From positions 44,392,001 to 44,456,000 of the forward strand of contig OX597832.1 of the NCBI GenBank assembly GCA_951406725.2: a stretch of 64,000 bases of DNA, in the 5' to 3' direction. This DNA comes from Octopus vulgaris (lineage: Eukaryota). Each line of letters begins with the position of its first letter. The stretch's first letter is position 1. Positions 10,725-63,986 of this stretch are shown here, in pieces. A program made the position numbers and the translations under genes. The notes under the pieces are model-generated. The model made no database searches. It was not told the DNA's origin and saw only the letters and a program-made list of their open reading frames with translations.

Positions 10725-11887
10725 ATACGACTATGGACTCAGCAAAGAAACAAGCCATCGGTAACCTTGCTGCTTCAATTGATTATTTTACAAACAGTCT
10801 TTATCAAGCTGTGGCTACAAGAATCAATGAAAATGTCTTCATGTCACCATTAAGTGTTGCTACAGTTTTATCAATGGTTTATTTGGGAGCAAGACAAAAC
10901 TCTGCCAAACAGTTTGAAAATGTTTTGAAGATAACATCAAATCCAGATTCTGTAGCTTTAGCTTTTAAAGAATATTTTTCACTTTTGAAAAACTCAGATA
11001 AACTTGTCACATTCAATTCAGTGAATCGTTTGTATGCCAGTGAAATATTCCCTATTTCTGAAGACTACAAGAACAACATGGTAAAATATTTCTTTTCAGA
11101 TATTGAAAATGTAGACTTCATAATAAATGCTGAGAAGACAAGAAGAACTATTAATGATTGGGTTAAGAATAACACAAATAACAAAATTACTGATCTGTTA
11201 CCAAGTGGAAGTTTGACACCTCAATCAATTCTAGTTCTTATTAATGCTGTATACTTTAAAGGAATGTGGGCTAAAAAATTCCCAGAACATGCAACAAAAT
11301 CTAGAAAGTTTTATTTACGTTCTGACAAGACTGTATTTCATGATTTTATGTATAAATCTGAAGATTTTAATACCAAAACAAGCGACAACTATAAAGTCGT
11401 TGAGTTACCTTATATTGGAAAAGCATTTAGTATGTTTGTAATTCTTCCCAATGACATCAATGGTCTTGCTGCTTTAGAGAAGGAGATTAATGCTCAATTT
11501 CTCAAAGATATTATAAACAGAAAAGGATTTGAAATGATGTATCTAGAATTACATATGCCAAAATTTCGTTTAGAGAGTTGTTTTCAGTTGGGTGAAGTTT
11601 TGAAAAAGCTTGGACTCTCTGATATTTTTGATCCTCTAAAAGCTGATTTATCTGGAATGACTGGTGGTGAGAAGAATATTTATGCCAGTGAAATGTTTCA
11701 TAAAGCATTTGTTAATGTTAATGAAGAAGGAACGGAAGCTGCTGCTGCAAGTGGAATGGTCGCGATGGCAATGTCAGTACAAATTGGGATGGAATTTTAT
11801 GTCAATCACCCATTCACATTTTTGATTGTTGATAACCGAACTAAAATGATCCATTTCATTGGTAAAGTAACAAATCCTACAACATAA
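10725..11887 (+). CDS. Serpin copy 1, main exon; RCL SGMVAMAM-SVQ (predicted P1-P1' Met-Ser)
   Basis: NVFMSP, NAVYFKGMW, EEGTEAAAA hinge and NHPF signature; polypyrimidine tract plus AG at 10723-10724; internal ATG at 10733. Confidence 0.97.
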
Positions 11888-12203
11888 GCTAATATTGCCC
11901 TGTCAAAGATTTCCCTCTTATGGAATACTACATTGTATTATGTGGAGAATGTAACTGAACAAATTTATTTAGAATTGTTTTTAGTAAAATGACTGAGGAC
12001 ATTATAATTGTAACTATGTAGAACCAAGGTCATATCTATTCAATGATATATTATAATACCACATTAATCTAAATCAATATTATGAATTTGTACTTGCCAT
12101 ATATTGACAGAAAAATATGACACTTTTTAAAGTGTCTTTTTTTAGCAAGTTTACTATTTTAAGAATATACTTATTGTTGCCTGTAAACATTATTTACTGG
12201 TTA

Positions 12204-12254
12204 AATAAAGAGAAATCAATGCCTGTAAGTTTTGTTTCTGTTTATATTAATAAA
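12204..12254 (+). terminator. Two AATAAA polyadenylation signals of serpin copy 1
   Basis: AATAAA at 12204 and 12249; matching sites in - strand copies (e.g. 19128 and 19163). Confidence 0.6.
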
Positions 12255-12845: not shown

Positions 12846-12937
12846 GGAAGAAGAGCAGAAGAAGAAGAAGAAGAAAAAGAAGAAGAAAAAGAAGAAGAAA
12901 GAAGAAGAAGAAGAAGAAGAAGAAGAAGAAGAAGAAG

Positions 12938-12967
<30 letters not shown>
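12846..12967. repeat. (GAA)n tract at the unit boundary
   Basis: Read directly; expanded versions at 25617-26002 and 56474-56765. Confidence 0.95.
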
Positions 12968-19486: not shown

Positions 19487-20664
19487 TTATGTTGTAGGAT
19501 TTGTTACTTTACCAATGAAATGGATCATTTTAGTTCGGTTGTCAACAATTAAAAATGTGAATGGGTGATTGACATCAAAATCCATACGATTTATAAAAAA
19601 CTTATTACACATCAAGACCTTAAAATTAGTTGCAGCTGCAGCTTCCGTCCCTTCTTCATTAACTTCAACAAATGCTTTATGAAACATTTCACTGGCATAA
19701 ATATTCTTCTCACCACCAGTCATTCCAGATAAATCAGCTTTTTGAGGATCAAAAATATCAGGGAGTCCAAGCTTTTTCAAAACATCACCCAAATTAAAAC
19801 TACTCTCTAAACGAAATTTTGGCATATGTAATTCTAGACCCATCATTTTAAATCCTTTTCTGTCAACAATGTCTTTGAGAAATTGAGCATTAATCTCCTT
19901 CTCTAAAGCAGCAAGACCATTGATTTCATTGGGAAGAATTACAAACATACTAAATGCTTTCCCTATATAAGGTAACTCAACCACTTTATAGTTGTCGCTT
20001 ATTTTTGTATTAAATCCTTCAGATATATACATAAAATCATGAGATACAGTCTTGTCAGAGCTTAAATAAAACTTTCTAGATGATGTTGCTTCTTCTGAGA
20101 ATATTTCAGCCCACGTTCCTTTGAAGTATACAGCATTAATAAGAACTAGAACCGATTGAGGTGTCAAACTTCCACTTGGTAACAGATCAGTAATTTTGTT
20201 ATTTGTGTTATTCTTAACCCAATCATTAATAGTTATTCTTGTCTTCTCAGCATTTGTCATAAAGTCTACATTTTCAATATCTGAAAAGAAATATTTTACC
20301 ATGTTGTTCTTGTAGTCTTCAGAAATAGGGAATATTTCACTGGCGCACAAACGATTCACTGAATTTAATGTGACAAGTTTATCTGATGTTTTCAAAAGTG
20401 AAAAATATTCTTTAAAAGCTAAAGCTACAGAATCTGGATTTGATGTTATCTTCAAAACATTTTCAAACTGTTTGGCAGAGTTTTGTCTTGCTCCCAAATA
20501 AACCATTGATAAAACAGTAGCAACACTGAATGGTGACATGAAGACATTTTCATTGATTCCTGTAGCCACAGCTTGATAAAGACTGTTTGTAAAATAATCA
20601 ATTGAAGCAGCAAGGTTACCGATGTCTTGTTTCTCTGCTGAGTCCATATTGTATACGATAGTGT
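19487..20664 (-). CDS. Serpin copy 2; RCL TNFKVLMC-NKFF
   Basis: Intact 386-aa ORF from ATG 20647; acceptor AG at 20666-20665 is in phase 1. Confidence 0.95.
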
Positions 20665-21518: not shown

Positions 21519-22084
21519 TGACCGTGTGAAGGAGAGGTGACGAGAATGGCTCCTTTAGTACGCCGCACGGTCGATTACAATAAATAGGAAAAAGGATGAA
21601 TGAGTATGAATGCCAGCAGGAAAGAGAGACACAACCAGTCGAATGTTGAAGAGAAAGATTTTATTGATAAGTTAACATGTGTGTCTGTGTGTGTGTCGTG
21701 TATATATAATAATAGACAGGCCGTCATGTATACATAATGTGTGTGCAGAAACGTGGATGTGTGCGTGTGCGATAAGTACAGAGCATTGAAAGAGTCTATA
21801 ATAGGATGTTAGAAGAATGCAATGCAGAGCCAGTTGAGGCACGTGTCATGCGTGAAGCTGTGGCTACTATGCAGAGCCGGTTACTTGGTACAGAAGGTTC
21901 TCGCAGGTTGTATCTGCTGTTAACCATGGTGAAATAATTCATGAACAGTGTTGAGTAGAGGCCATTGATTGGTTAAAATCTGAAAAATTAAACTACGTTA
22001 AACTTACAACTTACAATTTTCTCAAGAGAGCCAGAAATTGTGTTGAAAACTGCCGTTCAAAAGGAATAGATCCTCCTTTTCTAA

Positions 22085-23072
22085 TTGAAACCATTTTTCT
22101 GCAAGGCCTTCCACATGACCATATCACGCCATCCGACAAATTTTTTTGGCTACATCCTTCAAGGAACATTTCTAGAGAATAGTAAGTTAAAGTGCGAGCA
22201 GATTATTGATATTTTATATTATTGGTCAAAAGAAGATTTAGCAAAGGGAATAGCCCAGGAATGCCGAATAGATTGGAGAAATTTTTGCTGTGATATATGT
22301 GCAGAATATTATGTTGCACAAAACATTAAGCTCAGAGGGCCAAACTGAATTGTAGAGATAGATGAAAGAGCGTTTGTTAGAAGAAAATATAATGTTGGCC
22401 ATCAGGTTAAAACGCAGTGGGTTTTTGGTGCTTTGGAAAGGGATACTAGAAGATGGTATTTGGTGGCAGTGGAAGATCGGACTGCAGACACTCTTTTAGA
22501 AATTATACAAGAGCGTATATAGCCTGGTACAACTGTAATTTCTGACCTCTGGCGTTCGTATAATACGCTCAATCAGCTAGGATATAGGCATTTGACTGTG
22601 AATCATCATCATCATCATCATCATCGTTTAACGTCCGTTCTCCATGCTAGCATGGGTTGGACGGTTCGACCGGGGTTCTGGGAAGCCAGAAGGCTGCACC
22701 AGGCCCCAGTCTAATCTGGCAATGTTTCTACAGCTGGATGCCCTTCCTAACGCCAACCACTCCATGAGTGTAGTGGGTGCTTTTTATGTGCCACCTGCAC
22801 AGGTGCCAGGCGAGGCTGGCAGCGGCCACGGTCAGATTGGTGTATTTTATGTGCCACCGGCAATAAATTTTGTTGATCCGGTAACATTTGCCACAACCAA
22901 CCACATAGAATGTTTATGGAAGCATGTAAAGAATCGTAACAAAAGAGAAAATGGAACAGCCCGAAATTTACTTCAATCCCATCTCATTGAATTCATGTGG
23001 CATTATGAATTTAAGGACGAAATCTTTGGAAAGTTATTGGAACAAATTCAACATCTATACCCATGCTTTTGA
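22085..23072 (+). mobile_element. Merlin (IS1595/ISXO2-like) DDE transposase pseudogene, interrupted by a family 4 retroposon (22603-22862)
   Basis: IVEIDE..RKYNVG..WVFGALER..VEDRTADTL..PGTTVISDLWRSY..HLTVNH..NFVDP..TNHIECLW; contains stops. Confidence 0.9.
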
Positions 23073-24129
23073 AACCTTACAGAATAGAAGTATCTACAAA
23101 GCATTTGTTTTATATTTCGTTAAATTCTTTCAGTTGAAAATTATATTTTTATATTCTAAATAATTTGCAATTTCAGAAAATATATTAACTTTGCGTTTTT
23201 TAATTTGATAAATTCTACGGAAACAAACAAGTGACGTCAGATTGAAGTCACACTTTCTTTTACTTTCCTCCTGACAGCTAATTCCGTAGTGGTGCCTGTA
23301 ACAGGATGTAGCGCAACTACGTGCTCTTTTGTTTTCTTACACACACGCCGCCTCAATTCAGGTGGGGTAAACATTTAAAATAACATTTTTTTGTTGATGC
23401 TCTTATCCCACCAATGGAGCACGCATGTGGCCCATTGGTATCATCATTAAAGGGGATGAGGAGTTAAAAAAAAAAATCATAAATTTTCCAAACCATTTTT
23501 TCATAACAAGATGTTTCCCATCATTTCGAAGGTTGTGGTGAAAAACAATCGGGAAAACCCTGTCCAAAAGGGAGAAATTCCAACTTATGTGGTCTTCTTG
23601 ATCGGAAACTCCTCTCCCTGCTCCCTAAAAATTTTTTCCAAAAAAAATTTCTTTATAATCTTAATCTATGCCGTTTGGAAGGTATTTATATAAAATTTCA
23701 CTAAAAGATATCCATTTTCCTGAAAGTTATGAGGGAAAAAATCGGATTGTGTGAATTTTGCGAAAGTCCTCTCCTCATCCCCGTTTCGTTTACGCAAATT
23801 TTGTTTTCCAGATTCGTTAACTTTTTTCTTCTTGTTCTGGTGGCCGGGTATTAAACTTGTAGTGTGATGGATGAAGAAGACAACAGAAAAAGAAGCAACG
23901 GGAGAAAGAAATACAAAAGGCCTTACCTCTTCGAAATCAGCGGTCTCTTTCACGAATTCGACACGTCTTAACGCTTTCCCGTCTATGTTGGAACTGTCCT
24001 GCTTGACAAACTCCTGCTGCGCATGCATTCTGCAGTCTTCCGCCCACTTCGTCTATCACCAGTGCACCACTTAGCTCATCACATCCTATAACACCGACTG
24101 CCAACACCACAAAACTAGGTAGTAACCGA

Positions 24130-32147: not shown

Positions 32148-33328
32148 TTATGTTGAAGGATTTGTTACTTTACCAATGAAATGGATCATTTTAGTTCGGT
32201 TGTCAACAATTAAAAATGTGAATGGATGATTGACATCAAAATCCATACGATTTATAAAAATTTCTAAAGACTGTAAGATCACGACCATTCCAGTTGCAGC
32301 AGCAGCTTCCGTTCCTTCTTCATTAACATCAACAAATGCTTTATGAAACATTTCACTGGCATAAATATTCTTCTCACCACCAGTCATTCCAGATAAATCA
32401 GCTTTTAGAGGATCAAAAATATCAGAGAGTCCAAGCTTTTTCAAAACATCACCCAACTTAAAACTACTCTCTAAACAAAATTTTGGCATATGTAATTCTA
32501 GACCCATCATTTTAAATCCTTTTCTGTCAACAATGTCTTTGAGAAATTGAGCATTAATCTCCTTCTCTAAAGCAGCAAGACCATTGATTTCATTGGGAAG
32601 AATTACAAACATACTAAATGCTTTCCCTATATAAGGTAACTCAACCACTTTATAGTTGTCGCTTATTTTTGTATTAAATCCTTTAGATATATACATAAAA
32701 TCATGAGATACAGTCTTGTCAGAGCTTAAATAAAACTTTCTAGATGATGTTGCTTCTTCTGAGAATATTTCAGCCCACGTTCCTTTGAAGTATACAGCAT
32801 TAATAAGAACTAGAACCGATTGAGGTGTCAAACTTCCACTTGGTAACAGATCAGTAATTTTGTTATTTGTGTTATTCTTAACCCAATCATTAATAGTTAT
32901 TCTTGTCTTCTCAGCATTTGTCATAAAGTCTACATTTTCAATATCTGAAAAGAAATATTTTACCATGTTGTTCTTGTAGTCTTCTGAAATAGGGAATTTT
33001 TCACTGGCATACAAACGATTCACTGAATTGAATGTGACAAGTTTATCTGAGTTTTTCAAAAGTGAAAAATATTCTTTAAAAGCTAAAGCTACAGAATCTG
33101 GATTTGATGTTATCTTCAAAACATTTTCAAACTGTTTGGCAGAGTTTTGTCTTGCTCCCAAATAAACCATTGATAAAACAGTAGCAACACTGAATGGTGA
33201 CATGAAGACATTTTCATTGGTTCCTGTAGCCACAGCTTGATAAAGACTGTTTGTAAAATAATCAATTGAAGCAGCAAGGTTACCGATGTCTTGTTTCTCT
33301 GCTGAGTCCATATTGTATACGATAGTGT
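32148..33328 (-). CDS. Serpin copy 3; RCL TGMVVILQ-SLEIF (predicted P1-P1' Gln-Ser)
   Basis: Intact 387-aa ORF from ATG 33311; phase-1 acceptor ctccag. Confidence 0.95.
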
Positions 33329-34787
33329 CTGGAGAATATAGAATATGAAGAGAAAATATACAGAATAAATTCTGGCAAACATTTCAAAATATTTTATTAG
33401 ACATTACTGTAATTAAAGACATCTATAAAAGCAAAGTCTGAAATCTCTTCTGATCAAACTCTAATTTTAACTTTTACATGAACATATTTCTTAACATAAC
33501 ACTGAGTTAATGTGTTTTAAACAGTTTTTAAAATAATTAAAAATTTATATGATTAATTAATATAACCATTTTTTCTCCAATATTTATCTGATATTTGGCA
33601 CATATCTTAAAAGTTTCATTTATAAGATGATGCTGGAACTTAACCATGTTTGCATTTCAGAGACAAATTTGAATGGAGCAGGTTTAGTTTTCATTTTTTG
33701 CATATATGGTAAGATAAGGTATCAAGTACAATGATATACTCCACCTGCTGAGAGCCTGGTCAAATACTTGCAACAAAATGACATCCTCAAAAAAGGCCTT
33801 AATGTGCCTGGAGGTGATGTTGAACTAATTAGTGTAATACCAAGCTAGACTGGATCCTGTAAACCTAGACTCAATGGTTAATATTTAGTTTGTAGAATGA
33901 CCTGTGGGATGACGTCAGCAGCTGGGTGCGTTGACCGGAAGCTGGGGCAACCGGAAGGGGCTGCTGTCAGGCGTGCGCAGGCAGCGGTCAATTGGGCCTT
34001 TCCAACGTGGGTCGTCCAAATGACAAGACGTGTGAGGACGGTCGCTAAGGGTCTGGGTGAGCAGCTGCTATCTTTAGTGTTCGGGTTGGAGCTGTGTCGA
34101 AGGATTAGCTACCACAGAAGGGTCTCCATCACGAGGAAGAGAAGGTAGGTGCCTTTATATTCAATTCGTGCACACACCACATGACCGTGTGAAGGAGAGG
34201 TGACGAGAATGGCTCCTTTAGTACGCCGCACGGTCGATTACAATAAATATGAAAAAGGATGAATGAGTATGAATGCCAGCAGGAAAAGAGAGACACAACC
34301 AGTAGAATGTTGAAGAGAAAGATTTTATTGATAGGTTAACATGTGTGTCTGTGTGTGTGTCATGTATACATAATGTGTGTGCAGAAACGTGGATGTATGC
34401 GTGTGCGATTAGTACAGAGCATTGAAAGAGTCTATAATAGGACGTTAGAAGAATGCAATGCAGAGCCAGTTGAGGCACGTGTCATGCGTGAAGCTGTGGC
34501 TACTATGCAGAGCCGGTTACTTGGTACAGAAGGTTCTCGCAGGTTGTATCTGCTGTTAACCATGGTGAAATAATTCATGAACAGTGTTGAGTAGAGGCCA
34601 TTGATTGGTTAAAATCTGAAAAATTAAACTACGTTAAACTTACAAATTACAATTTTCTCAAGAAAGCCAAGAGAACAAATGTTTTATTTTGACACATTTT
34701 ACCAGTATACGAAGTTTAAAAGTGTTTAGTTAACTAGAAATTGTGTTGAAAACTGCTGTTCAAAAGGAAAAGATCCTCCTTTTCTAA

Positions 34788-35761
34788 TTGAAACCATTTT
34801 TCTGCAAGGCCTTCCACATGACCATATCACGCCATCCGACAAATCTTTTTTGGCTACATCCTTCAAGGAACATTTCTAGAGAATAGTAAGTTGAAGTGCG
34901 AGCAGATTATTGATATTTTATAGTATTGGGCAAAAGAAGATTTAGCAAAGGGAATAGCCCAGGAATGCTGTATAGATTGGAGAGATTTTTGCTGTGATAT
35001 ATGTGCAGAATATTATGTTGCACAAAACATTAAACTTGGAGGGCCAAACCGAATTGTAGAGATAGATGAAAGAGCGTTTGTTAGAAGAAAATATATTGTT
35101 GGCCATCAGATTAAAACGCAGTGGGTTTTTGGTGCTTTGGAAAGGGATACTAGAAGATGGTATTTGGTGGCAGTGGAAGATCGGACTGCAGACACTCTTT
35201 TAGAAATTATACAAGAGTGTATATAGCCTGGTACAACTGTAATTTCTGACCTCTGGCGTTCGTATAATATGCTCAATCAGCTAGGATATAGGCATTTGAC
35301 TGTGAATCATCATCATCATCATCATCATCATCGTTTAACGTCCGTTCTCCATGCTAGCATGGGTTGGACGGTTCGACCGGGGTTCTGGGAAGCCAGAAGG
35401 CTGCACCAGGCTCCAGTCTAATCTGGCAATGTTTCTACAGCTGGATGCCCTTCCTAACGCCAACCACTCCATGAGTGTAGTGGGTGCTTTTTACGTGCCA
35501 CCTGCACAGGTGCCAGGCGAGGCTGGCAACGGCCATGGTCAGATTGGTGTATTTTATGTGCCACCGGCAATAAATTTTGTTGATCCGGTAACATTTGCCA
35601 CAACCAACCACATAGAATGTTTATGGAAGCATGTAAAGAATCGAACAGCCCGAAATTTACTTCAATCCCATCTCATTGAATTCATGTGGCATTATGAATT
35701 TAAGGACGAAATCTTTGGAAAGTTATTGGAACAAATTCAACATCTATACCCATGCATTTGA
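34788..35761 (+). mobile_element. Merlin transposase pseudogene (unit B copy)
   Basis: Paralogue of 22085-23072 with the same retroposon insertion. Confidence 0.9.
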
Positions 35762-37585: not shown

Positions 37586-39238
37586 CCATTGGCTCCTGAA
37601 AGTTATGAGGGAAAAAATCGGATTGTGTGAATTTTGCGAAAGTCCTCTCCTCCTCTCCGTTTCGTTTGCGCAAATTTTGTTTTCCAGATTCGTTAACTTT
37701 TTTCTTCTTGTTCTGGTGGCCGGGTATTAAACATGTAGTGTGATGGATGAAGAAGACAACAGAAAAAGAAGCAACGGGAGAAAGAAATACAAAAGGCCTT
37801 ACCTCTTCGAAATCAGCGGTCTCTTTCACGAATTCGGCACGTCTTAACGCTTTCCCGTCTATGTTGGAACTGTCCTGCTTGACAAACTCCTGCTGCGCAT
37901 GCATTCTGCAGTCTTCCGCCCACTTCATCTATCACCAGTGCACCACTTAGCTCATCACATCCTATAACACCGACTGCCAACACCACAAAACTAGGTAGTA
38001 ACCGATTCGCTGGCAGAAAAGTTAGCACGCCGGGCGAAATGCTTAGCGGTATTTCGTCTCCTACTACGTTCTGGTTTCAAATTCCGCCAAGGTCGAGTTT
38101 GCCATTCATCCTTTCGGGGTCGATAAATTAAGTACCAGTTACGCACTGGGGTCGATGTAATGGACTGAATACCTATGTCTGTCCTTGTTTGTCCCCTCTG
38201 TGTTTAGCCCCTTGTGGGTAATAAAGAAATAGGTATTTCGTCAGCGATACGTTGTGAGTTCAAATTCCGCCGAGGTCGACTTTGCCATTCATCCTTTCGG
38301 GGTCGATAAATTAAGTACCAGTTATGCACTGGGGTCGATGTAATGGACTGAATACCTATGTCTGTCCTTGTTTGTCCCCCCTGTGTTTAGCCCCTTGTGG
38401 GTAATAAAGAAATAGGTATTTCGTCAGCGATACGTTGTGAGTTCAAATTCGGCCGAGGTCGACTTTGCCTTTCATCCTTTCGGGGTCGATAAATTAAGTA
38501 CCAGTTACGCACTGGGCTTGATGTAATGGACTGAATACCTATGTCTGTCCTTGTTTGTCCCCCCTGTGTTTAGCCCCTTGTGGGCAATAAAGAAATAGGT
38601 ATCCCAGACACTCCTATTTGATTGATACAGAAATTTAACCGTTTTCTTATTTTTTAAGGTAGGATATGATTTTAGGAAGATTTGGCTGGTCTATTGACCA
38701 CGTAGGGGTTTTCTCTTTGACTCATATCTAGATTTTGATGTCAGCCAAGCTTTCTAAAGAATGAAAGTTTTCGAAAATGAACACGTTAATAATAAATAAT
38801 TTCCATTATTTAATTCATACAAAAACATTCGGTTAATGTGAATAACTTGTCTTAATTTATCTAAAAAGACGAAGTAAAAAAAAAAAATCTAATCTGCTAC
38901 ATGGTGAAGTTTTGCCGTGATTTGACTTTCAAATAATGCATGACAAAACTATGGAATGTCGTCGATAATGAAGAGACTTTGCGAGGAAAGTTCGACCGAC
39001 TTGGCAATGAATGTGAAGTAATTAGTATGTCGAGTTAGGTTCCTTGCTGATAGAGAGTTAAAATGGGAGAAACTTTTTTGTTTTAAAATTTCTATAGCGC
39101 AAAATAGAAGTTAACTGCAGCATAAAGTAGAAAAGAAGTTCTGCCGACGACCACGTAGACTGCAGTTGACTCCAGAAAGTGTACGGTAGACTAATTAACG
39201 ATCTCGGCGTATAATGTGTGATGAACCAGAAATAATAA

Positions 39239-43029: not shown

Positions 43030-43074
<45 letters not shown>

Positions 43075-43619: not shown

Positions 43620-43672
<53 letters not shown>

Positions 43673-44031: not shown

Positions 44032-44207
44032 CTATATCGTGGGGTTTGTTACTTTACCAATGAAATGGATCATTTTAGTTCGGTCATCAACAACTAAAAA
44101 CGTGAATGGGTGATTGACATCAAATTGCATCCCAATTCTCGACATATAATTTGAGACCACCATTCCACTTGCAGCAGCAGCTTCCGTTCCTTCGTATATA
44201 GTCGTAT
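44032..44207 (-). other. Serpin mini-cassette: splice acceptor fused in frame to hinge, RCL and C-terminus (58 aa); RCL SGMVVSNY-MSR
   Basis: ctccag|AT ACG ACT ATA TAC GAA GGA ACG...; about 1 kb of scaffold is missing; open frame to a TAG stop. Confidence 0.85.
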
Positions 44208-44299
44208 CTGGAGAATATAGAATATGAAGAGAAAATATACAAAATAAATTTGTATAAACATTTGAGGCTACTGACCAGATCTCTAGATGGTGCAAAGTC

Positions 44300-44570: not shown

Positions 44571-44655
44571 ATATACACACACACAAATACATGCATGCAT
44601 GTACACGTACACACACACACATACACACTCATGCATGCATATTTTTATTATGAGT

Positions 44656-45997: not shown

Positions 45998-47168
45998 TCA
46001 TGTTGTAGGATCTGTTACTTTACCAATGAAATGGATCATTTTAGTTCGGTCATCAACAACTAAAAACGTGAATGGGTGATTGACATCAAATTGCATCCCA
46101 ATTCTCGACATATAATTTGAGACCACCATTCCACTTGCAGCAGCAGCTTCCGTTCCTTCTTCATTAACATCAACAAATGCTTTATGAAACATTTCACTGG
46201 CATAAATATTCTTCTCACCACCAGTCATCCCAGATAAATCAGCTTTTAGAGGATCAAAAATATCAGGGAGTCCAAGCTTTTTCAAAACATCACCCAACTT
46301 AAAACTACTCTCTAATGAAATTTTGGCATATTTAATTCTAGAAGCATCATTTTAAATCCTTTTCTGTCAACAATGTCTTTGAGAAATTGAGCATTAATCT
46401 CCTTCTCTAAAGCAGCAAGACCATTGATTTCATTGGGAAGAATTACAAACATACTAAATGCTTTTCCTATATAAAGTAACTCAACAACTTTATAGTTGTT
46501 GCGTATTTTTGTATTAAAATCTTCAGATATATACATAAAATCATGAGATACAGTCTTGTCAGAGCTTAAATAAAACTTTCTAGATGATGTTGCTTGTTCT
46601 GGGAATTTTTCAGCTCACATTCCTTTGAAGTATACAGCATTAATAAGAACTAGAACCGACTGAGGTGTCAAACTTCCACTTGGTAACAGATCGGTAATTT
46701 TGTTATTTGTGTTATTCTTAACCCAATCATTAATAGTAATTCTTGTCTTCTCAGCATTTGTTATGAAGTCTACATTTTCAATATCTGAAAAGAAATATTT
46801 TACCATGTTGTTCTTGTAGTCTTCTGAAATAGGGAATTTTTCACTGGCATACAAACGATTCACTGAATTGAATGTGACAAGTTTATCTGAGTTTTTCAAA
46901 AGTGAAAAATATTCTTTAAAAGCCAAAGCTACAGAATCTGGATTTGATGTTATCTTCAAAACATTTTCAAACTGTTTGGCAGAGTTTTGTCTTGCTCCCA
47001 AATAAACCATTGATAAAACAGTAGCAACACTGAATGGTGACATGAAGACATTTTCATTGGTTCCTGTAGCCACAGCTTGATAAAGACTGTTTGTAAAATA
47101 ATCAATTGAAGCAGCAAGGTTACCGATGTCTTGTTTCTCTGCTGAGTCCATATCGTATACGATAGTGT
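45998..47168 (-). pseudogene. Serpin pseudogene; RCL SGMVVSNY-MSR
   Basis: Full-length homology; TGG>TGA at 46615-46617 and a 1-bp deletion near 46315. Confidence 0.9.
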
Positions 47169-47680
47169 CTAGAGAATATAGAATATGAAAAGAAAATATA
47201 CAAAATAAATTCTGGCAAACATTTCAGTATATTGTAGAAGACATCTATGAAAGCAATGTCTGAAATCTCTTCTGTTCAAACTTTAAATTTAACTTTTACA
47301 TGAACATATTTTGTACGGTAACACTTAATATGATTTAAATAGATTTTAAAATAATTAAAAATTTATAAGATTTAATAATATAACCATTTCTTTCTTCCAT
47401 TCTTTATGTGGCATTTGGCACATACCTTAAAATGATGTTGAAATGTTTTAGCTTAAATACGGTGATTATTTACAAAATAGATTTGAACATTATGTATCAC
47501 ATTTAGAATACAGTTAGGAAACAATAAAATTTGGGTTTTTGCATAAATCATTTCAGACGATTTTCATACAGAATTCTTAGATCACATTAGTGTGTTTTAC
47601 ACTCTCTTGAAATATTGAACAGGAACTGTTTTTCAGGAAATTCTTTTGCATTTCATCTCTTCATATTGTATATTCTTTAG

Positions 47681-48729
47681 ATGCCACGGAAATAATATGG
47701 ACTAAGCAAAGAAACAAGACTTCGGTAACCTCGCTGCTTCAGTTGATTATTGTACAAAGAGTCTTTTTCAAGCTGTGTCTACAGGAACCGTTGAAAATGT
47801 TTTCATGTCACCATTCAATGTTGCTACCGTTTTATCAATGGTTTATTCTGGAGCAAGACAAAACTCTGCCAAACAATTGAAAATATTTTGAAAATAACTT
47901 TAAATACAGATCCTGTAATTTGAGGTTTTAAAGAATATTTTTCACTTTTGAAACACTCAGATGAACTTATTGCATTGAATTCAGTCAATTGTTTTAGTGC
48001 CAATGAAAAATTTCGTATTTCAGAAGACTAAAAGAACATTATTGCAAAAAATTTCTTTTCAGATATTGAAAATGTAGACTTCATGACAAATATTGGAAAA
48101 GGAAGAATTAATATTAATTACAATGTTGTAAGACAACAAGATGCTAGAATTGTTAGTATGCTGGGCAAAATACTTAGTAGCAATTTGTCCATCTTGACAT
48201 TCTGGAGTTGACATTGTCATCCTTTAGGGTTTGACAAAATAAGTACCAATTGAGCACTTGTGTTGCTGTAATTGATTTACCCCTACAATTAAATTGCTGG
48301 CCTTGCACCAAAATTTGAAAGCAGTTTTAATGATTGTGCTGAAAATAACACAAATAACATAATTACCGATCTCTTAACAATTTGAAGTTGACACCTCAGT
48401 CGGTTCTAGTTCTTATTAATGCTGTGTACTTGAAAAGAATATGGCATAAAATATTCCTATAAAAAGCAACATCATCTAGAAAGACAATTTTAGCACAAAA
48501 ATAAGCAACAGCTCTACAGTTGTTGAGTTACCTTATATAGGAAAAGCATTTAGTATGTTTGTAATTCTTCCCAATGAAATCAATGGCCTTAATGCTTTAG
48601 TGAAGGAGATTAATGCTCAATTTCTCAAAGATATTGTAGACAGAAAAGGGATTTGAAATGATGCTTCTAGAATTAAATATGCCAAAATTTCGTTTAGAGA
48701 GTAGTTTTAAGTTGGGTGATGTTTTGAAA
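47681..48729 (+). pseudogene. Old serpin pseudogene, truncated before the RCL
   Basis: Acceptor tctttag at 47680; ATG GAC TAA at 47697; many stops; degenerate SINE at ~48120-48325; ends at LGDVLK. Confidence 0.9.
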
Positions 48730-51374: not shown

Positions 51375-52555
51375 TTATGTTGAAGGATTTGTTACTTTAC
51401 CAATGAAATGGATCATTTTAGTTCGGTTGTCAACAATTAAAAATGTGAATGGATGATTGACGTCAAAATCCATACAATTTATAACAAATCGTCCTAACAC
51501 TTTCCTCCTTTCCATTGCACTTGCAGCAGCAGCTTCCGTTCCTTCTTCATTAACATTAACAAATGCTTTATGAAACATTTCACTGGCATAAGTATTCTTC
51601 TTACCATCACTCATTCCAGATAAATCTGCTTTTCGAGAATCAAAAATATCAGAGAGTCCAAGCTTTTTCAAAACATCACGCAACTTAAAACTACTCTCTA
51701 AACGAAATTTTGGCATATGTAAATCTAGACCCATCATTTGAAATCCTTTTCTGTCTACAATGTCTTTGAGAAATTCAGCATTAATCTCCTTCTCTAAAGC
51801 AGCAAGACCATTGATTTCATTGGGAAGAATTACAAACATACTAAATGCTTTTCCTCTATAAAATAACTCAACAACTTTATAGTTGTTGCTTATTTTTGTA
51901 TTAAAATCTTCAGATATATACATAAAATCATGAGATACAGTCTTCTCAGAGCTTAAATAAAACTTTCTAGATGATGTTGCTTGTTCTAGGAATTTTTCAG
52001 CCCACATTCCTTTGAAGTATACAGCATTAATAAGAACTAGAACCGTCAGAGTGGTCAAACTTCCACTTGGTAACAGATCGGTAATTTTGTTATTTGTGTT
52101 ATTCTTAACCCAATCATTAATAGTAATTCTTGTCTTCTCAGTATTTGTTATAAAGTCTACATTTTCAATATCTGAAAAGAAATATTTTACCATGTTGTTC
52201 TTGTAGTCTTCTGAAATAGGGAATATTTCACTGGCATACAAACGATTCACTAAATTGGATGTGACAAGTTTATCTGTGTTTTTCAAAAGTGAAAAATATT
52301 CTTTAAAAGCTAAAGCTACAGAATCTGGATTTGATGTTATCTTCAAAACATTTTCAAACTGTTTGGCAGAGTTTTGTCTTGCTCCCAAATAAACCATTGA
52401 TAAAACAGTAGCAACACTGAATGGTGACATGAAGACATTTTCATTGGTTCCTGTAGCCACAGCTTGATAAAGACTGTTTGTAAAATAATCAATTGAAGCA
52501 GCAAGGTTACCGATGTCTTGTTTCTCTGCTGAGTCCATATTGTATTTGGTAGTGT
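51375..52555 (-). CDS. Serpin copy 4; basic RCL SAMERRKV-LGRF
   Basis: Intact ORF (MDSAEK at 52538); phase-1 acceptor giving DTTKYNM; the ORF-track extension to 52586 is polypyrimidine tract. Confidence 0.95.
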
Positions 52556-53049
52556 CTAGAGAATATAGAATATGAAGAGAAAACATACGAAATAAATTCT
52601 TGCAAACATTTCAAAATAATTTATTAGACATTACTGTAATTATAGACATCTATGAAAGCAAAGTCTGAAATCTCTTCTGATCAAACTCTAATATTAACTT
52701 TTACATGAACGTATTTCTTAACATAACACAGAGTTGATGTGTTTTAAACACTTTTTAAAATAATTAAAAATTTATATATACCATTTTTTCTCCATTATTT
52801 ATCTGATATTTGGCACATATCTTAAAAGTTTCATTTATAAGATGATGTTGGAACTTATCCATGTTTACATTTCTGAGACAAATTTGAATGGAGCAGGTTT
52901 AGTTTTCATTTTTTGCATATATGGTAAGATAAGGTATCAAGTACAATGATATACTCCACCTGCTGAGAGCCTGGCCAAATACTTGCAACAAAATGACATC
53001 TTCACAAAAGGCCTCCAAGTGCCTTGAGGTGATGTTGAACTAATTAGTG

Positions 53050-53610
53050 TGTAAAGGGAACTGGTTGCTTCTTTACACTTTTGGGGTGCAACTTGGGTTC
53101 AACACAATTTCCTTTCCTTTTTGTTTCTAGAAAATACCAGTCGGTAACAAAACGCAACTTTAAAAATATATACGATTCTTTATTCTCTTATTCACAAATG
53201 AAGCACGATGGCATACTGGTATCCACCTAGTTCAACACAGCAAAGCTGAATTCTAACGTTTGTAAGATTCTTACAACAATTCAGCATTAATAGAACAGGT
53301 CAAATCCTAAGCGTCTGGGACAGGAGAATAGGCTGATCACACGTTTAAAAATACGTCCTTTCTCTTCTATCACTGTGTCTCAAGTCAACGACGCTATTAA
53401 GGAACGCGATAGAATTTCTTCCCCAGTCTCTAGCGCATGTGCATGAGGAAACTTCCTTATGCCTTTCCAGAAGGTTCCAGGAGGTTCCAACCCCGCACAC
53501 GCATACTGAAGAAGGATGTACCGCACACGCACACTGAAGAAGGATGTACCGCACACACACACTGAAGAATGACGTTGCGTGTGCGCACATTGGAATATGA
53601 CGTCAGTACA
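53050..53610. mobile_element. Solo LTR with 4-bp TSD AGTG (Gypsy-like)
   Basis: agtg|TGTA...TACA|agtg; empty sites at ~21170 and ~33833. Confidence 0.8.
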
Positions 53611-55902
53611 AGTGTAATACCAAGCTAGACCGGATCGGGTAAACCTAGACTCAATGGTTAATATTTAGTTTGTAGAATGACCGTGTGAAGGAGAGGTGAC
53701 GAGAATGTCTCCTTTAGTACGCCGCACGGTCGATTACAATAAATAGGAAAAAGGATGAATGAGTATGAATGCCAGCAGGAAAAGAGAGACACAACCAGTC
53801 GAATGTTGAAGAGAAAGATTTTATTGATAGGTTAACATGTGTGTCTGTGTGTGTGTCGTGTATATATAATAATAGACAGGCCGTCATGTATACATAATGT
53901 GTGTGCAGAAACGTGGATGTATGCGTGTGCGATGAGTACAGAGCATTGAAAGAGTCTATAATAGGACGTTAGAAGAATGCAATGCAGAGCCAGTTGAGGC
54001 ACGTGTCATGCGTGAAGCTGTGGCTACTATGCAGAGCCGGTTACTTGGTACAGAAGGTTCTCGCAGGTTGTATCTGCTGTTAACCATGGTGAAATAATTC
54101 ATGAACAGTGTTGAGTAGAGGCCATTGATTGGTTAAAATCTGAAATATTAAACTACGTTAAACTTACAAATTACAATTTTCTCAAGAGAGCCAGAAATTG
54201 TGTTGAAAACTGCCGTTCAAAAGGAATAGATCCTCCTTTTCTAATTGAAACCATTTTTCTGCAAAGCCTTCCACATGACCATATCACGCCATCCGACAAA
54301 TTTTGATGCTCTTATCCCACCAATGGAGCACGCGTGTGGCCCACTGGTATCATCATTAAAGGGGATGAGGAGTAAAAAAAAAAATCATAAATTTTCCAAA
54401 CCATTTTTTCATAACAAGATGTTTCCCATCATTTCGAAGTTTGTGGTGAAAAACAATCGGGAAAACCCTGTCCAAAAGGGAGAAATTCCAACTTATGTGG
54501 TCTTCTTGATCGGAAACTCCTCTCCCTGCTCCCTAAAAATTTTTTCCAAAAAAATTTCTTTATAATCTTAATCCATGCCGTTTGAAATGTATTTATATAA
54601 AATTTCACTAAAAGATATCCATTTTCCTGAAAGTTATGAGGGAAAAAATCGGATTGTGTGAAGTTTGCGAAAGTCCTCTCCTCATCCCCGTTTCGTTTGC
54701 GCAAATTTTGTTTTCCAGATTCGTTAACTTTTTTCTTCTTGTTCTGGTGGCCGGGTATTAAACTTGTAGTGTGATGGATGAAGAAGACAACAGAAAAAGA
54801 AGCAACGGGAGAAAGAATAACTAAAGGCCTTACCTTTTCGAAATCAGCGGTCTCTTTCACGAATTCTACACGTCTTATCGCTTTCCCGTCTATGTTGGAA
54901 CTGTCCTGCTTGACAAACTCCTGCTGCGCATGCATTCTGCAGTCTTCCGCCCACTTCATCTATCACCAGTGCACCACTTAGCTCATCACATCCTATAACA
55001 CCGACTGCCAACACCACAAAACTAGGTAGTAACCGATTCGCTGGCAGAAAAGTTAGCACGACGGGCGAAATGCTTAGCGGTATTTCCTCAGCGATACGTT
55101 GTTAGTTCAAATTCCGCCAAGGTCGACTTTGCCTTTCATCCTTTCGGGGTCGATAAATTAAGTACCAGTTACGCACTGGGGTCGATGTAATGGACTGAAT
55201 ACCTATGTCTGTCCTTGTTTGTCCCCTCTGTGTTTAGCCCCTTGTGGGTAATAAAGAAATAGGTATCCCAGACACTCCTATTAGATTGATACAGAAATTT
55301 AACCGTTTTCTTATTTTTTAAGGTAGGATATAATTTTAGGAAGATTTGGCTGGTCTATTGACCACGTAGGGTTTTTCTCTTTGACTCATATCTAGATTTT
55401 GATGTCAGCCAAGTTTTTTAAAGAATGAAAGTTTTCGAAAATGAACACGTTAATAATAAATAATTTCCATTATTTTATTTCATACAAAAACATTCGGTTA
55501 ATGTGAATAACTTGTCTTATTTTATCTAAAAAGACGAAGTGAAAAAAAAAAAATTTAATCTGCTACATGGTGAAGTTTTGCCGTGATTTGACTTTCAAAT
55601 AATGCATGACAAAACTATGGAATGTCGTCGATAATGAAGAGACTTTGCGAAGAAAGTTCGAGCGACGTGGCAATGAATGTGAAGTAATTAGTATGTCGAG
55701 TTAGGTTCCTTGCTGATAGAGTTAAAATGGGAGAAACATTTTTGTTTTAAAATTTCTATAGTGCAAAATAGAAGTTAACTGCCGCATAAAGTAGAAAAGA
55801 AGTTCTGCCGACGACCACGTAGACTGCAGTTGACTCCAGAAAGTGTACGGTAGACTAATTAACGATCTCGGCGTATAATGTGTGATGAACCAGAAATAAT
55901 AA

Positions 55903-56447: not shown

Positions 56448-56664
56448 ATTTTACCTTTCGTAAGATAGAAAATGGAAGAAGAAAAAGAAGAAGAAGAAGA
56501 AGAAGAAGAAGAAGAAGAAGAAGAAGAAGAAGAAGAAGAAGAAGAAGAAGAAGAAGAAGAAGAAGAAGGAGAAGAAGAAAAGAAGAAGAAGAAAAAAAGA
56601 AGAAGAAGAAAAAGAAGAAGGAGAAGGAGAAGAAGAAAAAGAAGAAGGAGAAGAAGCAGATGGC

Positions 56665-56696
<32 letters not shown>

Positions 56697-57960
56697 AGGA
56701 GGAGGAAGAAGAGAAGAAGATGGAGAAGAAGGAGGAGGAGGAGAAGGAGAAGAAGAAAAAGAAGTTGATGATGATGACGACGACAGCAATGATGAAGATG
56801 ATGATGGGTGTAGTGATGACTAGAACCACATTCATTATCTTTGAATGATGGATCGTTAGGGCCATTTGAGCATCAATGTTATTGACTCTAACCAGTTTCT
56901 CTGGAAATTACTGGTATGCCATTATAGACAATAGAATCAGAAGGAGCCTTCACTGTTCCATCACAACTGCTGGAGCTAGAGTAGGTTTTGACTGGTGATG
57001 GTAGGTGCCCCAACAGAATACTGTAAATCCTCGAGTATAATACGCAGAGGATTTTTAGGAGGCTGTACCTCTGAAAAACCTAAACCTTGTGTATAATACG
57101 CACTCCTTCTCTAACTTGAGTCATGAGTAATTAAATCAGCAGCATGTAGTTGAACAAATACTTCTGCACATGCGTAATACAATAATGGTGATGTTCTTAA
57201 CTGTTATATGGGAATGTAAATATGTTTGCAAATTGTTTTTATTACATGTTATTCTGTGTTCTAAATACTTTTATTTTGATAAATGTTGCTTACTGCAAGT
57301 TATGGATGATTCTTTTATGACTTCATTGCTTTCAGGCTTAGCTTAAGGTATTTTCGTGCCTGACATTACAAAATGTGTTACTGCCCATAACGCAGAAGAG
57401 AGGAAGTTTAACAAATGCATGAGCCTGACTGGCTGCTGTCTGTTTGTGCAGATTGCCATCAAGACCTTCGGTGTTCTTGGGCCCCTCACTGCTAATTCCT
57501 TCCACTAAATTAGGAAAGCAGTGGCCCGTGTGAAAAATGAACCCAGCAAAGTGGTATGGCTATTGTAGCGAGCATTGTTGGCCATTCTCTGTGATAATGC
57601 TTTTGCAGTTATGTCAGTGGAGTGCAGCTGAACATGCCATTTGGTCTGGGGTGTAAAACCTCTTACTCCTTCTCACCCCATCTTTTGCTGCTTAATTCCC
57701 CCTTTTTCTTTGTTGCCTCAGTGAGGTTACTCTCTCTTTACTCTTTTACTCTTTTACTTGTTTCAGTCATTTGACTGCAGCCATGCTGGAGCACCGCCTT
57801 TAATCAAGTAACTCGACCCCGAGACTTATTCTTTTTGTAAGACCAGTTCTTATTCTATCGGTCTCTTTTGCCGAACCGCTAAGTAACGGGGACCTAAACA
57901 CACCAGCATCGGTTGTCAAGCAATGCTAGGGGGACAAACACAGACACACAAACACACACA

Positions 57961-59333: not shown

Positions 59334-59860
59334 TGAGGTCTGATCAAAAAATATCAGAACTTGTGCTATAAAAAGAAAACTATAACACAAATCAATTCAG
59401 CATTTAATCGCCTTCAAAGTAATCCTGTTCTAAAGACACACACTTTATCCAGTGCCGTTTCCATTGATGGAAGTATTCTTGGAACTTTTTTTTTTGGGGG
59501 GGGGGTGACAGTGAGCAGTTGCCGCATTGCATCATCTTAGATTTCCATGATGTCTTGAAATCTTGTTCAAGTGGAATTTGATTTTTGACTTGTTATTGGT
59601 GTCACAGCCAAAGACCCATGATTTATCACCTCTTATAACTGTTTTCAAAAGTTTTCGTCTTCCTCAACACAATCAAGGAGATCCTGCACATTTGAAACTT
59701 GACTCTTTTTTTTGAGATGACCACACTCTACACACTTTACTTCCAAGCATTGATATAAACAACAGAAGTGTGCATGCGGGACAGGGTTCAAGGTGAATTT
59801 TCCAAGTGGCTTCATTGTAGATAACTCAGCAACAGCCCAATCCCTTTTGATCAGACCTTG
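59334..59860 (-). mobile_element. Deleted mariner element (unit C copy)
   Basis: Same TIRs as 15792-16309. Confidence 0.85.
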
Positions 59861-62808
59861 TATTATTATAATTCTATTCACATTCACAATGCATTCATTA
59901 TAAGAATGAATATCCCTATAATCACACCAGTATTTGATTGCTAATCTATTTCATTGATTTTGTAAAGGTAAAAGATATTATTGAACCAATTGTGTATCAT
60001 ACTTAATGTCTGAGACCCCCTTCAGTCACAACACAGACCATGGGATTGCACCTAGAAAGTCACCCTCTCAGGTACACGTCCAGGCAAGTTTGTTTATGGA
60101 AGACCAGCAGTCGCCATGCATACCGGCCACCCCTCTCCATACCACCGATGTTATCTGAGGGAAAGGCAAAGGGGCCGATACAGCTTGGCACCTGTGTCGT
60201 CGTAACTCATTTCTCCAGCTGAGTGAACTGGAGCAATGTGAAATAAAGTGTCTTGCTCAAGAACACAACACGCAGCCCGGTCCGGGATTCGAACTCACAA
60301 CCTCACGATTGTAAGCTCTACGCTCTAACCACTGAGCCATGCACCTTCACATACTTAATGTAAATACATCACAAAAGGTTGATTTACTGCTGTGTATATC
60401 TCAAATTATTTTATCTCATAAGGACATGCTGAATTAAAAAATACATTATATATATCGAAGGCAGACGAAAATTGCTCTTGTTGCAAAGTGGTAAGTGTAC
60501 TGGATGCATTTCTGCCTCATTTAAGAAGGTGCATGACTCAGTGGTTAGGGCGTCAAGCTATCGATCGTGAGGTTGTGAGTTCGAATCCCGGACCGTGCTG
60601 CGTGTTGTGTTCTTGAGCAAGACACTTTATTTCACGTTGCTCCAGTTCACTCAGCTGTAGAAATGAGTTGCGATGTCACAGGTGCCAAGCTGTATCGGCC
60701 CCTTTGCCTTTCCCTTGGCTATGAGTATGTGCCATTGACAATGTAGCAGCACAAGCAGTCAGCGCCATATTGGATGAGATCTTGCGGCATCCATTGCCAT
60801 CTCCGAGACGGGAGCGAGACCTCACCTGCATTCATTTTTGCCATGTGAAAGATCACAACGAGGCTCGTGATAGAAAACTATATAAAGGGAAAACACTCTT
60901 CAAGTCTCTCTTCTTTGGCGCCGCTACACAGCAGCACTTGCTGAACACACCACTGGCTGGAGGCAATTTGCACCCGCATTATCGGAGCTTAAGATGGCAG
61001 CTGAGAGCAGCACCCTTCATTACCTTTCCTGTAAATAAACCAGTTGTAAATAGCATTTATAATTGAAGCCTTTTCACTTCACCTGCTGGAAGCCTGAACT
61101 ACATAAAGAACAAAAAGATGATGGAAGGAGATGATATTCCTCCGATATCATAAACCTTGCCTTCCATTATTAAAACAATGTCTAACAGGACATGAACACA
61201 TTTAGCATTCTCACCAACCACTGCTAGGACAATCTTCATATGCCTGATATAAATTGTGTTTTTAAACAAGCATGTCCATATCAGATATTATTTCTGCATG
61301 AATACTACAGAAAGTTTGCCTTTTGTGATGTATTTACTTTACATATAATATCCAGATGGATATGTATATATATTTAAGTATGCTGTGCATGAGAAGACCT
61401 GGCAGGACAAGTGAGACCATAAGCCGTGACCTCTACATGGGATGTAGCCAGTCCACTTATGCATATCTTTCCTTCTAGGGACACAAAACTCTGCTTGCGA
61501 AGACCTGTTGAGGCAAGTGAAATTGAAAATCGAAATCGATGAACATCAATGGAAATTGCAGCTGTGATACCAGTGCCGGTGGTATGTAAGAGAACCATCT
61601 GAACGTGGCCGTTGGCAGCGCCGCCCCGACTGCGCTCGTAAAAAGCACCCACTACACTCACAGAGTGGTTGGCATTAGGAAGGGCTTCTTAACTATACAG
61701 CAACACCTGTACCCTAGAAAATTTGACTGCTCCTGGGTGGGCTTGTACCATTTATTTTTTAGTCTGTTGCCAGCCCCACCTGGCCCTCGTGCTGGTGGCC
61801 GTTTGCCAGTCCTGTCTGACACCTGTGCCGGTGGCACGTAAAAAGCACCCACTACACTCACGGAGTGGTTGGCGTTAGGAAGGGCATCCAGCCGTAGAAA
61901 TACTGCCAGATCAGACTGGGCCTGATGCAGCCTTCTGGCTTTCCAGACCCCAGTTGAACCGTCCAACCCATGCTAGCACGGAAAGCGGACGCTAAACGAA
62001 GATGATGATGATGATGATGATGATGATTTGTTTGCATCTTGCTTAATATTTTCAAATATTTTTTAAAAATGGAAATGTTGGTTTGTAAATATTAAATGAA
62101 GCCCCATCACTGGAATTTCAGTAACAGCAACAAAAATAGAAAAGTATATGGGAATTTCTTCACTGATTCTTGTTCTACTTACAGATAGAACATTCTAGAA
62201 TAGACGGTATATATTCTCTTTGCTACCTTGAGAATATATATGTATATGGTACATTGGCTGTTAACTTTCCAAAAGTTTTGTAATGCCGCAATTATTGAAA
62301 CAATGTAATTAGTTTATCAAGATCCAAGACATAATTACGAAGGGTGAACACGGGCGCTCAAAAATTTCGAATGTCTAAATTTAAAACAAGGAATATAAAA
62401 GCCAGATGCAATCAACACATACATAATAATGGAATATTTACTGAGATACTTTATAAATATGAAACATACAAATATTGATTTCACTTTATTCAACGAGAAA
62501 ATAACGTTTACAGGCAACAGTAGATATATTGTTAAAATAGTAAACTTGCAAAGAAAGGATACTTTAAAAAGTGTCAAATTTTTCTGTCAATGTATAGCAT
62601 ATACAAATTCATAATATTGATTTGGATTAATGTGGTATTATAATATATCATTGAATAGATATGACCTTGGTTCTACACGATTACAATTATAATGTCCTAA
62701 GTCATTTTACTAAAAAAACGATTCTAAATAAATTTGTTCAGTTACATTCTCCACATAATACAATGTAGTATTCCATAAGAGGGAAATCTTTGACAGGGCA
62801 ATATTATC

Positions 62809-63986
62809 TTATGTTGTAGGATTTGTTACTTTACCAATGAAATGGATAATTTTAGTTCGGTTGTCAACAATTAAAAATGTGAATGGGTGATTGACATCAA
62901 AATCCATACAATTTAGAAAATAATCATCACACATCAAGCACCCAATATCAGTTGCAGCTGCAGCTTCCGTCCCTTCTTCATTAACATCAACAAATGCTTT
63001 ATGAAACATTTCACTGGCATAAATATTATTCTCACCACCAGTCATTCCAGATAAATCAGCTTTTAGAGGATCAAAAATATCAGGGAGTCCAAGGTTTTTC
63101 AAAACTTCAACCAACTGAAAACTACTCTCTAAACGAAATTTTGGCATATGTAATAGTAGACTCATCATTTTAAATCCTTTTCTGTCAACAATGTCTTTGA
63201 GAAATTGAGCATTAATCTCCTTCTCTAAAGCAGCAAGACCATTGATTTCATTGGGAAGAATTACAAACATACTAAATGCTTTTCCTATATAGGGTAACTC
63301 AACGACTTTATAGTTGTCGCTTATTTTGGTATTAAAATCTTCAGATGTATACATAAAATCATGAAATACAGTCTTGTCAGAACGTAAATAAAACTTTGTA
63401 GATTCTGTTGCATGTTCTGAGAATATTTTAGCCCACATTCCTTTAAAGTATACAGCATTAATAAGAACTAGAATTGATTGAGGTGTCAACCTTCCACTTT
63501 GTAACAGATCAGTAATTTTGTTATTTGTGTTATTCTTAACCCAATCATTAATAGTTATTCTTGTCTTCTCAGCATTTGTTATGAAGTCTACATTTTCAAT
63601 ATCTGAAAAGAAATATTTTACCATGTTGTTCTTGTAGTCTTCAGAAATAGGGAATATTTCACTGGCATACAAACGATTCACTGAATTGAATGTGACAAGT
63701 TTATCTGAGTTTTTCAAAAGTGAAAAATATTCTTTAAAAGCCAAAGCTACAGAATCTGGATTTGATGTTATCTTCAAAACATTTTCAATCTGTTTGGCAG
63801 AGTTTTGTCTTGCTCCCAAATAAACCATTGATAAAACAGTAGCAACACTGAATGGTGACATGAAGACATTTTCATTGGTTCCTGTAGCCACAGCTTGGTA
63901 AAGACTGTTTGTAAAATAATCAATTGAAGCAGCAAGGTTACCGATGTCTTGTTTCTCTGCTGAGTCCATATTGTATACGATAGTGT
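62809..63986 (-). CDS. Serpin copy 5; RCL TDIGCLMC-DDYF
   Basis: Intact 386-aa ORF from ATG 63969; phase-1 acceptor ctccag. Confidence 0.95.

Follow-up and report, generated by a model that had tools for sequence, protein, structure and literature searches.

Tandem serpin paralogues with hypervariable reactive centre loops (RCLs) are known from the rodent Serpina3 and Serpinb clusters. Shufflons and invertible hsdS genes are prokaryotic DNA inversion systems, and in vlsE and chicken immunoglobulin pseudogene conversion the donors are promoterless and truncated. These systems frame the analysis of a 64,000-nucleotide stretch of the Octopus vulgaris genome (2.8 Gb), G000:C19:44392001-44456000, referred to below as the window, which carries several copies of a serpin gene. 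A first-pass annotation had proposed that the only leader-linked intact copy (copy 1, on the + strand) is a single expression site, and that the inverted copies beside it are an archive of silent donors from which new RCLs are supplied by inversion or conversion. The evidence presented here indicates that the locus is probably an ordinary, rapidly diversifying serpin multigene array rather than a cassette-switching system.

Among arthropod serpins, the accessible part of a preprint describes tandemly duplicated tick genes (bioRxiv 10.64898/2026.06.26.734773). Similarly, the available sections of two further papers describe alternative RCL exons and alternative N-termini for Drosophila Spn42Da (PMC4006314) and Pteromalus PpSerpin-1 (PMC10513286). 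Literature searches on octopus serpins, RCL and tandem arrays returned no paper on this array among the matches listed, and the word 'serpin' occurs 0 times in the accessible main text, exclusive of supplements, of the O. vulgaris genome paper. The array genes are already present in public annotation.

The proposal is that the window covers the left portion of an array of ~140 kb, made up of full-length serpin genes whose main differences lie in the RCL, and that each gene is expressed where it lies, from a 5′ exon of its own. An ancestral two-exon gene, consisting of a leader and a whole-serpin exon, would have been duplicated in inverted orientation. The body would then have multiplied in ~3-kb and ~13-kb units, the latter gaining non-coding first exons, and a 17.5-kb block would have been copied again very recently (99.5% identity). 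RCL diversity would have built up over evolutionary time through duplication and selection, with gene conversion now and then, rather than through programmed switching, and different RCLs would aim the paralogues at different proteases.

The serpin array and its reactive centre loops

The serpin domain PF00079 was recognised in all five translations tested, with E values of 1e-107 to 3e-109 for four full copies, which align to positions 4-370 of the 370-position profile, and of 1e-11 for an internally deleted copy termed the mini-cassette. Among solved structures, those of Serpin B3/B4 come closest (E 7e-70), ahead of antithrombin and PAI-2. Protein databases use the name 'leukocyte elastase inhibitor(-like)' for close relatives from Octopus sinensis, O. 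bimaculoides and O. vulgaris. The products of the window open reading frames (ORFs) are identical or almost identical to proteins filed under O. vulgaris. Inhibitory serpins carry, by consensus, small residues at hinge positions P12-P9, ahead of the RCL; in the octopus array the hinge reads EEGTEAAAA in 10/10 intact copies.

A search of the host genome returned 48 matches, the majority of the strongest lying on C19 adjoining the window. The array extends 73 kb past the window end, to a total of ~140 kb; positions beyond the window are given as window equivalents. It comprises 15 full-length copies at 10.7-124.9 kb, with copy 1 on the + strand and the other 14 on the - strand; 10 are intact, and frameshifts or stops break the remaining five. 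The repeat units of ~13 kb are 96-97% identical to one another. Within the window, all intact copies other than copy 1 (c19, c32, c51 and c62; Table 1) lie on the - strand, in agreement with the first-pass annotation, from whose list the degenerate + strand partial copy was missing.

Divergence is greatest in the RCL. The ratio of replacement to silent differences (pN/pS) is 1.35 in the RCL versus 0.46 elsewhere, and the mean pairwise amino-acid difference is 0.56 in the RCL bin versus 0.02-0.20 elsewhere, both comparisons being approximate with indels in the RCL alignment. Counted from the hinge, the predicted P1 residue is Met for copy 1, Tyr for the c104 type and Leu, Met or Val for the far-end copies; for the long-loop copies of the window it is Cys, Gln or part of a basic cluster.

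Signal-peptide leaders and local first exons

The body exon of copy 1 starts at 10725, directly after a polypyrimidine tract and AG, and exon 8545-8614 joins the 10724|10725 acceptor in frame, giving D-T-T-M-D-S. The same junction occurs in the deposited models P0008 of O. vulgaris and P0137 of O. sinensis. Searches of the window with blastn and tblastn found no leader homologue beyond the leader itself. A whole-genome search found a second signal-peptide leader at G000:C19:44529202-44529367 on the - strand (window-equivalent ~137.2 kb), 73 kb past the window. It is 80% identical to the left leader over 165 bases, ~90 bases 5′ of the ATG included, encodes MARIIPGFPFLVVLFCMSQQTVS and has the length and phase-1 donor of the left leader. 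The two leader exons, one per array end, both face inward. The O. vulgaris model P0125 joins the second leader to a c123-type body; a signal-peptide exon is carried by copy 1 and c123. Copy 1 is thus the only copy with a signal-peptide leader inside the window, as first described, but not in the array as a whole, where the second leader serves the - strand and - strand copies have local 5′ exons.

The AG acceptor is retained in 15/15 copies. All 15 body acceptors are in phase 1, as is the leader donor, and no stop interrupts the 3-6 codons that separate acceptor and ATG in any copy. Each of the four intact - strand copies in the window has both ATG and acceptor. Furthermore, an AATAAA or ATTAAA signal lies <=700 bases past the stop in 12/12 copies checked, at 317-320 bases in 10 of the 12.

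Contigs of four runs from four studies were mapped on 45430-55900, and the results below refer to the listed variant rows and joints. A contig of run X4 has a joint 47168->54175 with CT..AC ends, equal to GT..AG on the - strand, and contigs of runs X5 and X7 have a joint 47170->54837 with one extra letter between the sides. The two joints define non-coding 5′ exons b and a, respectively (Table 1); in all three runs the joined sites are canonical GT-AG pairs. In the exon a contigs, the exon end ...GATTTCGAAGAG is joined to the first body base past the AG. This junction is of the GAAGAG type, which is carried at 23.9, 37.8, 67.3, 80.6 and 98.7 kb; the exon at 54.8 kb has GAAAAG. For the 1089-base X7 contig with the exon a joint, the best match of the listed variant letters is to c19 and c32 (15/18); for X4 it is to c19 (11/12) and for X6 to c115 (15/18). 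In no case do the listed letters fit c46 itself. The best fits of the spliced contigs are c19/c32 and c112/c115. The acceptor of c46 at 47170-47169 is a landing site for contigs from paralogous units, and the 7-kb skips of the contigs are artefacts of mapping such units on 45430-55900.

Six - strand copies have exons a and b upstream of them, 96-99% identical between units, and three of these units lie in the window. Each of the six exon a homologues is 2.3-4.4 kb upstream of a - strand copy. The donors postulated by the first-pass annotation are thus intact genes with acceptors, ATGs and poly(A) signals, for which spliced contigs exist, and with local first exons joined to - strand bodies neither a silent archive nor a single expression site is upheld. 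Exon a has an in-frame TGA (serpin frame) four codons before the junction, so translation would begin at the body's own ATG and yield a protein lacking a signal peptide. As read from sequence, the - strand genes of the window would be leaderless, cytosolic, clade-B-like inhibitors, with secretion predicted for copy 1 and the right-most copy.

The ATGs within the three window exons a open a frame that, after splicing, runs into the serpin body and continues there for ~70 codons in the +1 frame. With 33116-33403 (-), this frame would make up an upstream ORF that overlaps the start codon of the serpin.

Table 1. Serpin exons, copies and related features of the window (positions in window coordinates).
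Feature	Position	Strand	Remarks
Left leader, signal-peptide coding exon of copy 1	8545..8614	+	encodes MAEVISCLIFLIALSCVSQQTAS; 23 codons + 1 base; phase-1 donor G|GTATAT
Copy 1 intron	8615..10724	+	GT...AG; microsatellites and a repeat resembling a short interspersed nuclear element, ~10160-10580
Copy 1 body exon, coding part	10725..11887	+	internal ATG 10733; coding sequence 10733-11887; RCL SGMVAMAMSVQIGMEF; PF00079 E 2.8e-109
Intact serpin copy c19	19487..20664	-	386 amino acids from ATG 20647; AG acceptor 20666-20665; RCL TNFKVLMCNKFFINRMDF
Exon b homologue upstream of c19	21990..22144	-	98.7% identical to 54150-54320; splicing seen on paralogous unit
Non-coding 5′ exon a, c19 unit	23927..24103	-	ends ...GAAGAG|GTAAGG at 23927
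Intact serpin copy c32	32148..33328	-	387 amino acids; RCL TGMVVILQSLEIFINRMDF
Exon b homologue upstream of c32	34626..34847	-	66-base insertion splits exon
Non-coding 5′ exon a, c32 unit	37803..37979	-	donor GAAGAG|GTAAGG
Mini-cassette, internally deleted copy	44032..44207	-	acceptor, DTTIY, then hinge, RCL and C-terminus; RCL SGMVVSNYMSRIGMQF
Copy c46, frameshifted, ORF in three pieces	45998..47168	-	c120-type backbone with c104-type RCL patch
Degenerate partial serpin copy	47619..48729	+	77-84% identical; head to head with c46
Intact serpin copy c51	51375..52555	-	387 amino acids; RCL SAMERRKVLGRFVINCMDF
Non-coding 5′ exon b	54175..54304	-	donor AAAATT|GTAATT at 54175; joint in run X4
Non-coding 5′ exon a, c51 unit	54834..55010	-	donor AAAAG|GTAAGG; joint in runs X5, X7
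Intact serpin copy c62	62809..63986	-	386 amino acids; RCL TDIGCLMCDDYFLNCMDF; copy-1-like tract in middle third
Exon a homologue of c62	window-equivalent 67272-67482		just past window; homology

Gene conversion and the RCL of copy 1

Recombination tests were run on the 15-copy alignment; they are rough for related sequences and carry no multiple-pair correction. A four-gamete statistic resembling the pairwise homoplasy index was calculated from 123 informative sites in 14 sequences (c88, a 99.5% duplicate, was dropped). The observed value of 0.324, against a permutation mean of 0.381, was matched or undercut in 0/2000 permutations. In longest-run tests, 7/91 pairs had an observed run that 0/1000 permutations reached, and two of the seven involve copy 1. 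The mosaic nature of copy 1 that the first-pass annotation had noted is thus statistically real, which speaks for the proposed switch. In sliding windows, the nearest copy to c62 is its sister c75 at either end and copy 1 in columns 300-800; c46 is c120-like throughout except for a c104-like RCL patch (4-6 mismatches versus a median of 24-29).

The shared motifs are real. QSILVL, LRSDKTVFHDFMY and ESxFQL are common to copy 1 and the 62.8-kb copy, and the junction CTCCAGATACGACTAT, shared with the mini-cassette, has two occurrences, at 10719 (+) and 44198-44213 (-), where none is expected. The frame SGMV...IGMxF is indeed shared with the 44/46-kb cassettes, but the RCLs closest to that of copy 1 lie elsewhere: c123 and c109, beyond the window, each match it at 11/16 residues, and the 44/46-kb cassettes at 8/16.

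The derived residues R222 and F228 are common to O. vulgaris copy 1 and c62 and absent from the O. sinensis orthologue; therefore, the exchange between copy 1 and c62 took place later than the species split. This recent tract fits a donor-fed copy 1, but it excludes the RCL. Furthermore, copy 1 differs from its O. sinensis orthologue P0137 at 10/410 residues, none in the leader or RCL, and the RCL is the same at 16/16 residues in the references of the two species (two individuals). A leader-bearing Argonauta serpin, P0013, matches the copy 1 RCL at 10/16 residues. From the O. sinensis identity and the Argonauta match, the RCL type of copy 1 looks old and stable at the leader-linked gene, contrary to the expectation that the expressed copy would acquire new RCLs.

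Copy 1 and c19 are convergent inverted repeats of 1.9 kb with ~89-92% identity, so the inverted-repeat geometry invoked for switching is valid. The interval between them, 12.8-18.9 kb, is colinear with its equivalents in other units and is therefore unflipped in this assembly. Ten non-serpin ORFs of the window (100-192 amino acids) were compared with Pfam at E <= 0.01, a sample not exhaustive for 64 kb, and 0/10 matched any family, recombinases included. An impression that some of them are transposase or reverse-transcriptase remnants is likewise unsupported by Pfam.

Conversion between copies, inverted ones included, is real on the evolutionary scale and able to move an RCL, and no signs of programmed conversion were found. 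Recombination between inverted copies was therefore rightly suspected as an evolutionary process, as the four-gamete statistic and the tracts attest, but not as programmed RCL switching.

Several further observations concern the structure of the array. The block 36755-54304, which contains the mini-cassette, c46, c51 and the + strand partial copy, recurs 42.8 kb further on, at window-equivalent 79599-97140, as a 17.5-kb copy with 99.5% identity. The repeat reflects either a segmental duplication of very recent date or a region left uncollapsed in the assembly. Long (GAA)n arrays at 12847-12967, 25618-26002 and 56475-56764 mark borders of the ~13-kb units, where they may have promoted unequal exchange. 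A serpin 3′ fragment (L009), 84% identical to copy 1, lies at window-equivalent -2569 to -2152 (+), upstream of the left leader; the array formerly reached, or still reaches, further left. Positions 1-1700 of the window form a long TG/CA-rich low-complexity tract with a GC skew of 0.61, in which the ORFs are runs of H-T repeats.

Alternative readings and comparison with known systems

The case for an array of individually expressed genes must be set against a number of points. The O. sinensis isoforms X1-X3 share a leader and differ in their bodies; a single complex gene may therefore make up at least the array's right half. The junction of the left leader with copy 1 is known from deposited gene models rather than from reads. 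The runs behind the spliced contigs are recorded as 'RNA?', a guess, and supply contigs, not reads; these contigs are 95-99% like 45430-55900 and come from paralogous units, which makes assignment to a single gene uncertain, and the evidence is drawn from the listed rows, with 62 variant rows and 226 loose ends outside them. In addition, the inversion state is known from one assembly, made from the DNA of one individual.

The first of these points leads to a reading that is possible, if improbable, in which the - strand array is one transcription unit whose right-end leader is spliced alternatively to many body exons, each body being secreted when joined to the leader and cytosolic when joined to its own 5′ exon and translated from its own ATG. 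The shared phase of donor and acceptors and the open codons before the ATG of every copy would permit such splicing. Deposited models also agree with it. P0125, P0129 and P0004 place the second leader on c123-type and c104-type bodies; the O. sinensis isoforms X1 and X3 share an identical leader on c123- and c104-type bodies, and X2 has the c120-type RCL. Similarly, the O. bimaculoides models P0003 and P0006 carry the corresponding leader of that species on two different bodies, and so with different RCLs. However, this support consists of automatic gene models of other species, and the bodies concerned all lie beyond the window (window-equivalent 104-125 kb). For copies of the window type, the junctions in the contigs run to the local exons a and b rather than to the leader, and the right leader is 73-117 kb away from the window copies. 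Shared use of a leader is thus suggested only by the gene models of sister species. It is accordingly doubtful that every whole-serpin body has two modes of use, cytosolic via a local exon and secreted via an end leader acting over tens of kilobases. Equally tentative is the notion that such a two-mode locus would represent whole-serpin cassette splicing, a precursor of the RCL-exon system of insects.

In O. vulgaris, c120 (window-equivalent 120682-121909) has two compensating 1-base indels and is in frame only in its C-terminal third with the RCL. The O. sinensis isoform X2 has the c120 RCL behind a c123-type N-terminal part; a GT donor at the switch point of X2 was sought in O. vulgaris c123 and is absent there. 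c120 may be on the way to becoming an alternative exon that supplies the RCL alone. The ends of the mini-cassette match the body of the O. sinensis isoform X3 (P0004); it is a deletion derivative and the sole RCL-only unit in the window, where the other copies are whole bodies.

It is very unlikely that the bodies form a polyserpin, in which they would be chained in frame from a donor-like motif, ATTG|GTAAAGT, to the next acceptor, as in deposited models of 1736 and 1126 amino acids. The motif (codons G-K-V, e.g. 19505-19517 (-)) stands seven codons before the stop, resembles a phase-1 donor, is present in 15/15 copies in phase with the acceptors and is used by the O. vulgaris models P0126, P0144 and P0125. 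It also encodes the conserved G-K-V of the serpin C-terminus, however, and protein constraint would be the reason for its retention. No joint from the C-terminal donor of c51 to the c46 acceptor is among the joints listed, an absence that contigs are unable to establish. The fused models pass over frameshifted stretches, as predictions guided by homology typically do. According to the accessible part of its description, the O. vulgaris annotation combined transcripts, protein alignments and ab initio predictions (PMC10700109). The 1736- and 1126-residue models are probably artefacts, a point of use for cephalopod genome annotation.

Finally, given the second leader and local first exons, the intact and spliced donors and the stable RCL of copy 1, it is extremely improbable that copy 1 is the sole expression site into which silent, inverted - strand donors swap their RCLs by crossover or gene conversion, whether somatic or frequent in the germline. 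Two findings that the first-pass annotation had itself named as contradicting its model were obtained: a second leader for the - strand copies and, between the references of two species, an unchanged copy 1 RCL. Programmed switching of this kind would, if true, have represented a new form of somatic diversification in an animal.

Read as a multigene array, the locus shows how a protease-inhibitor repertoire grows through whole-gene duplication, fast change of the bait loop and small conversion tracts that are able to carry a loop to another backbone, with secreted genes predicted at the ends and leaderless genes inside. It also offers a starting point for asking which proteases of the octopus, or of its prey and pathogens, these inhibitors meet.

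Compared with the systems introduced at the outset, the array resembles shufflons and hsdS in that inverted homologous segments flank a variable 3′ coding part. It differs from them in being a eukaryotic germline locus whose archive copies are expressed, which has been seen in no inverted state, and which has no single promoter or expression site, given the second leader and the local exons a and b; no recombinase was found in the 10 ORFs tested, and no dedicated crossover sites are evident. With vlsE and the chicken immunoglobulin genes it shares segmental conversion tracts between paralogues, but here the donors are intact, spliced and polyadenylation-competent, and the RCL of the leader-linked gene has persisted through a species split.

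As in the insect RCL-exon loci, one locus would give rise to inhibitors with different RCLs, with or without a signal peptide, and so address different proteases and cell compartments. The variable units of the insect loci are RCL-only exons behind a shared body; those of the octopus window are complete genes, each with a first exon of its own. The tandem serpin clusters have in common with it adjacent whole-gene duplicates, a conserved scaffold, replacement changes concentrated in the RCL, and traces of gene conversion and unequal exchange. The octopus array is set apart from these clusters by its two-exon gene, in which the whole serpin is contained in one exon, and by an arrangement in which leaders face inward from the array ends and most of the inner copies have non-coding first exons.

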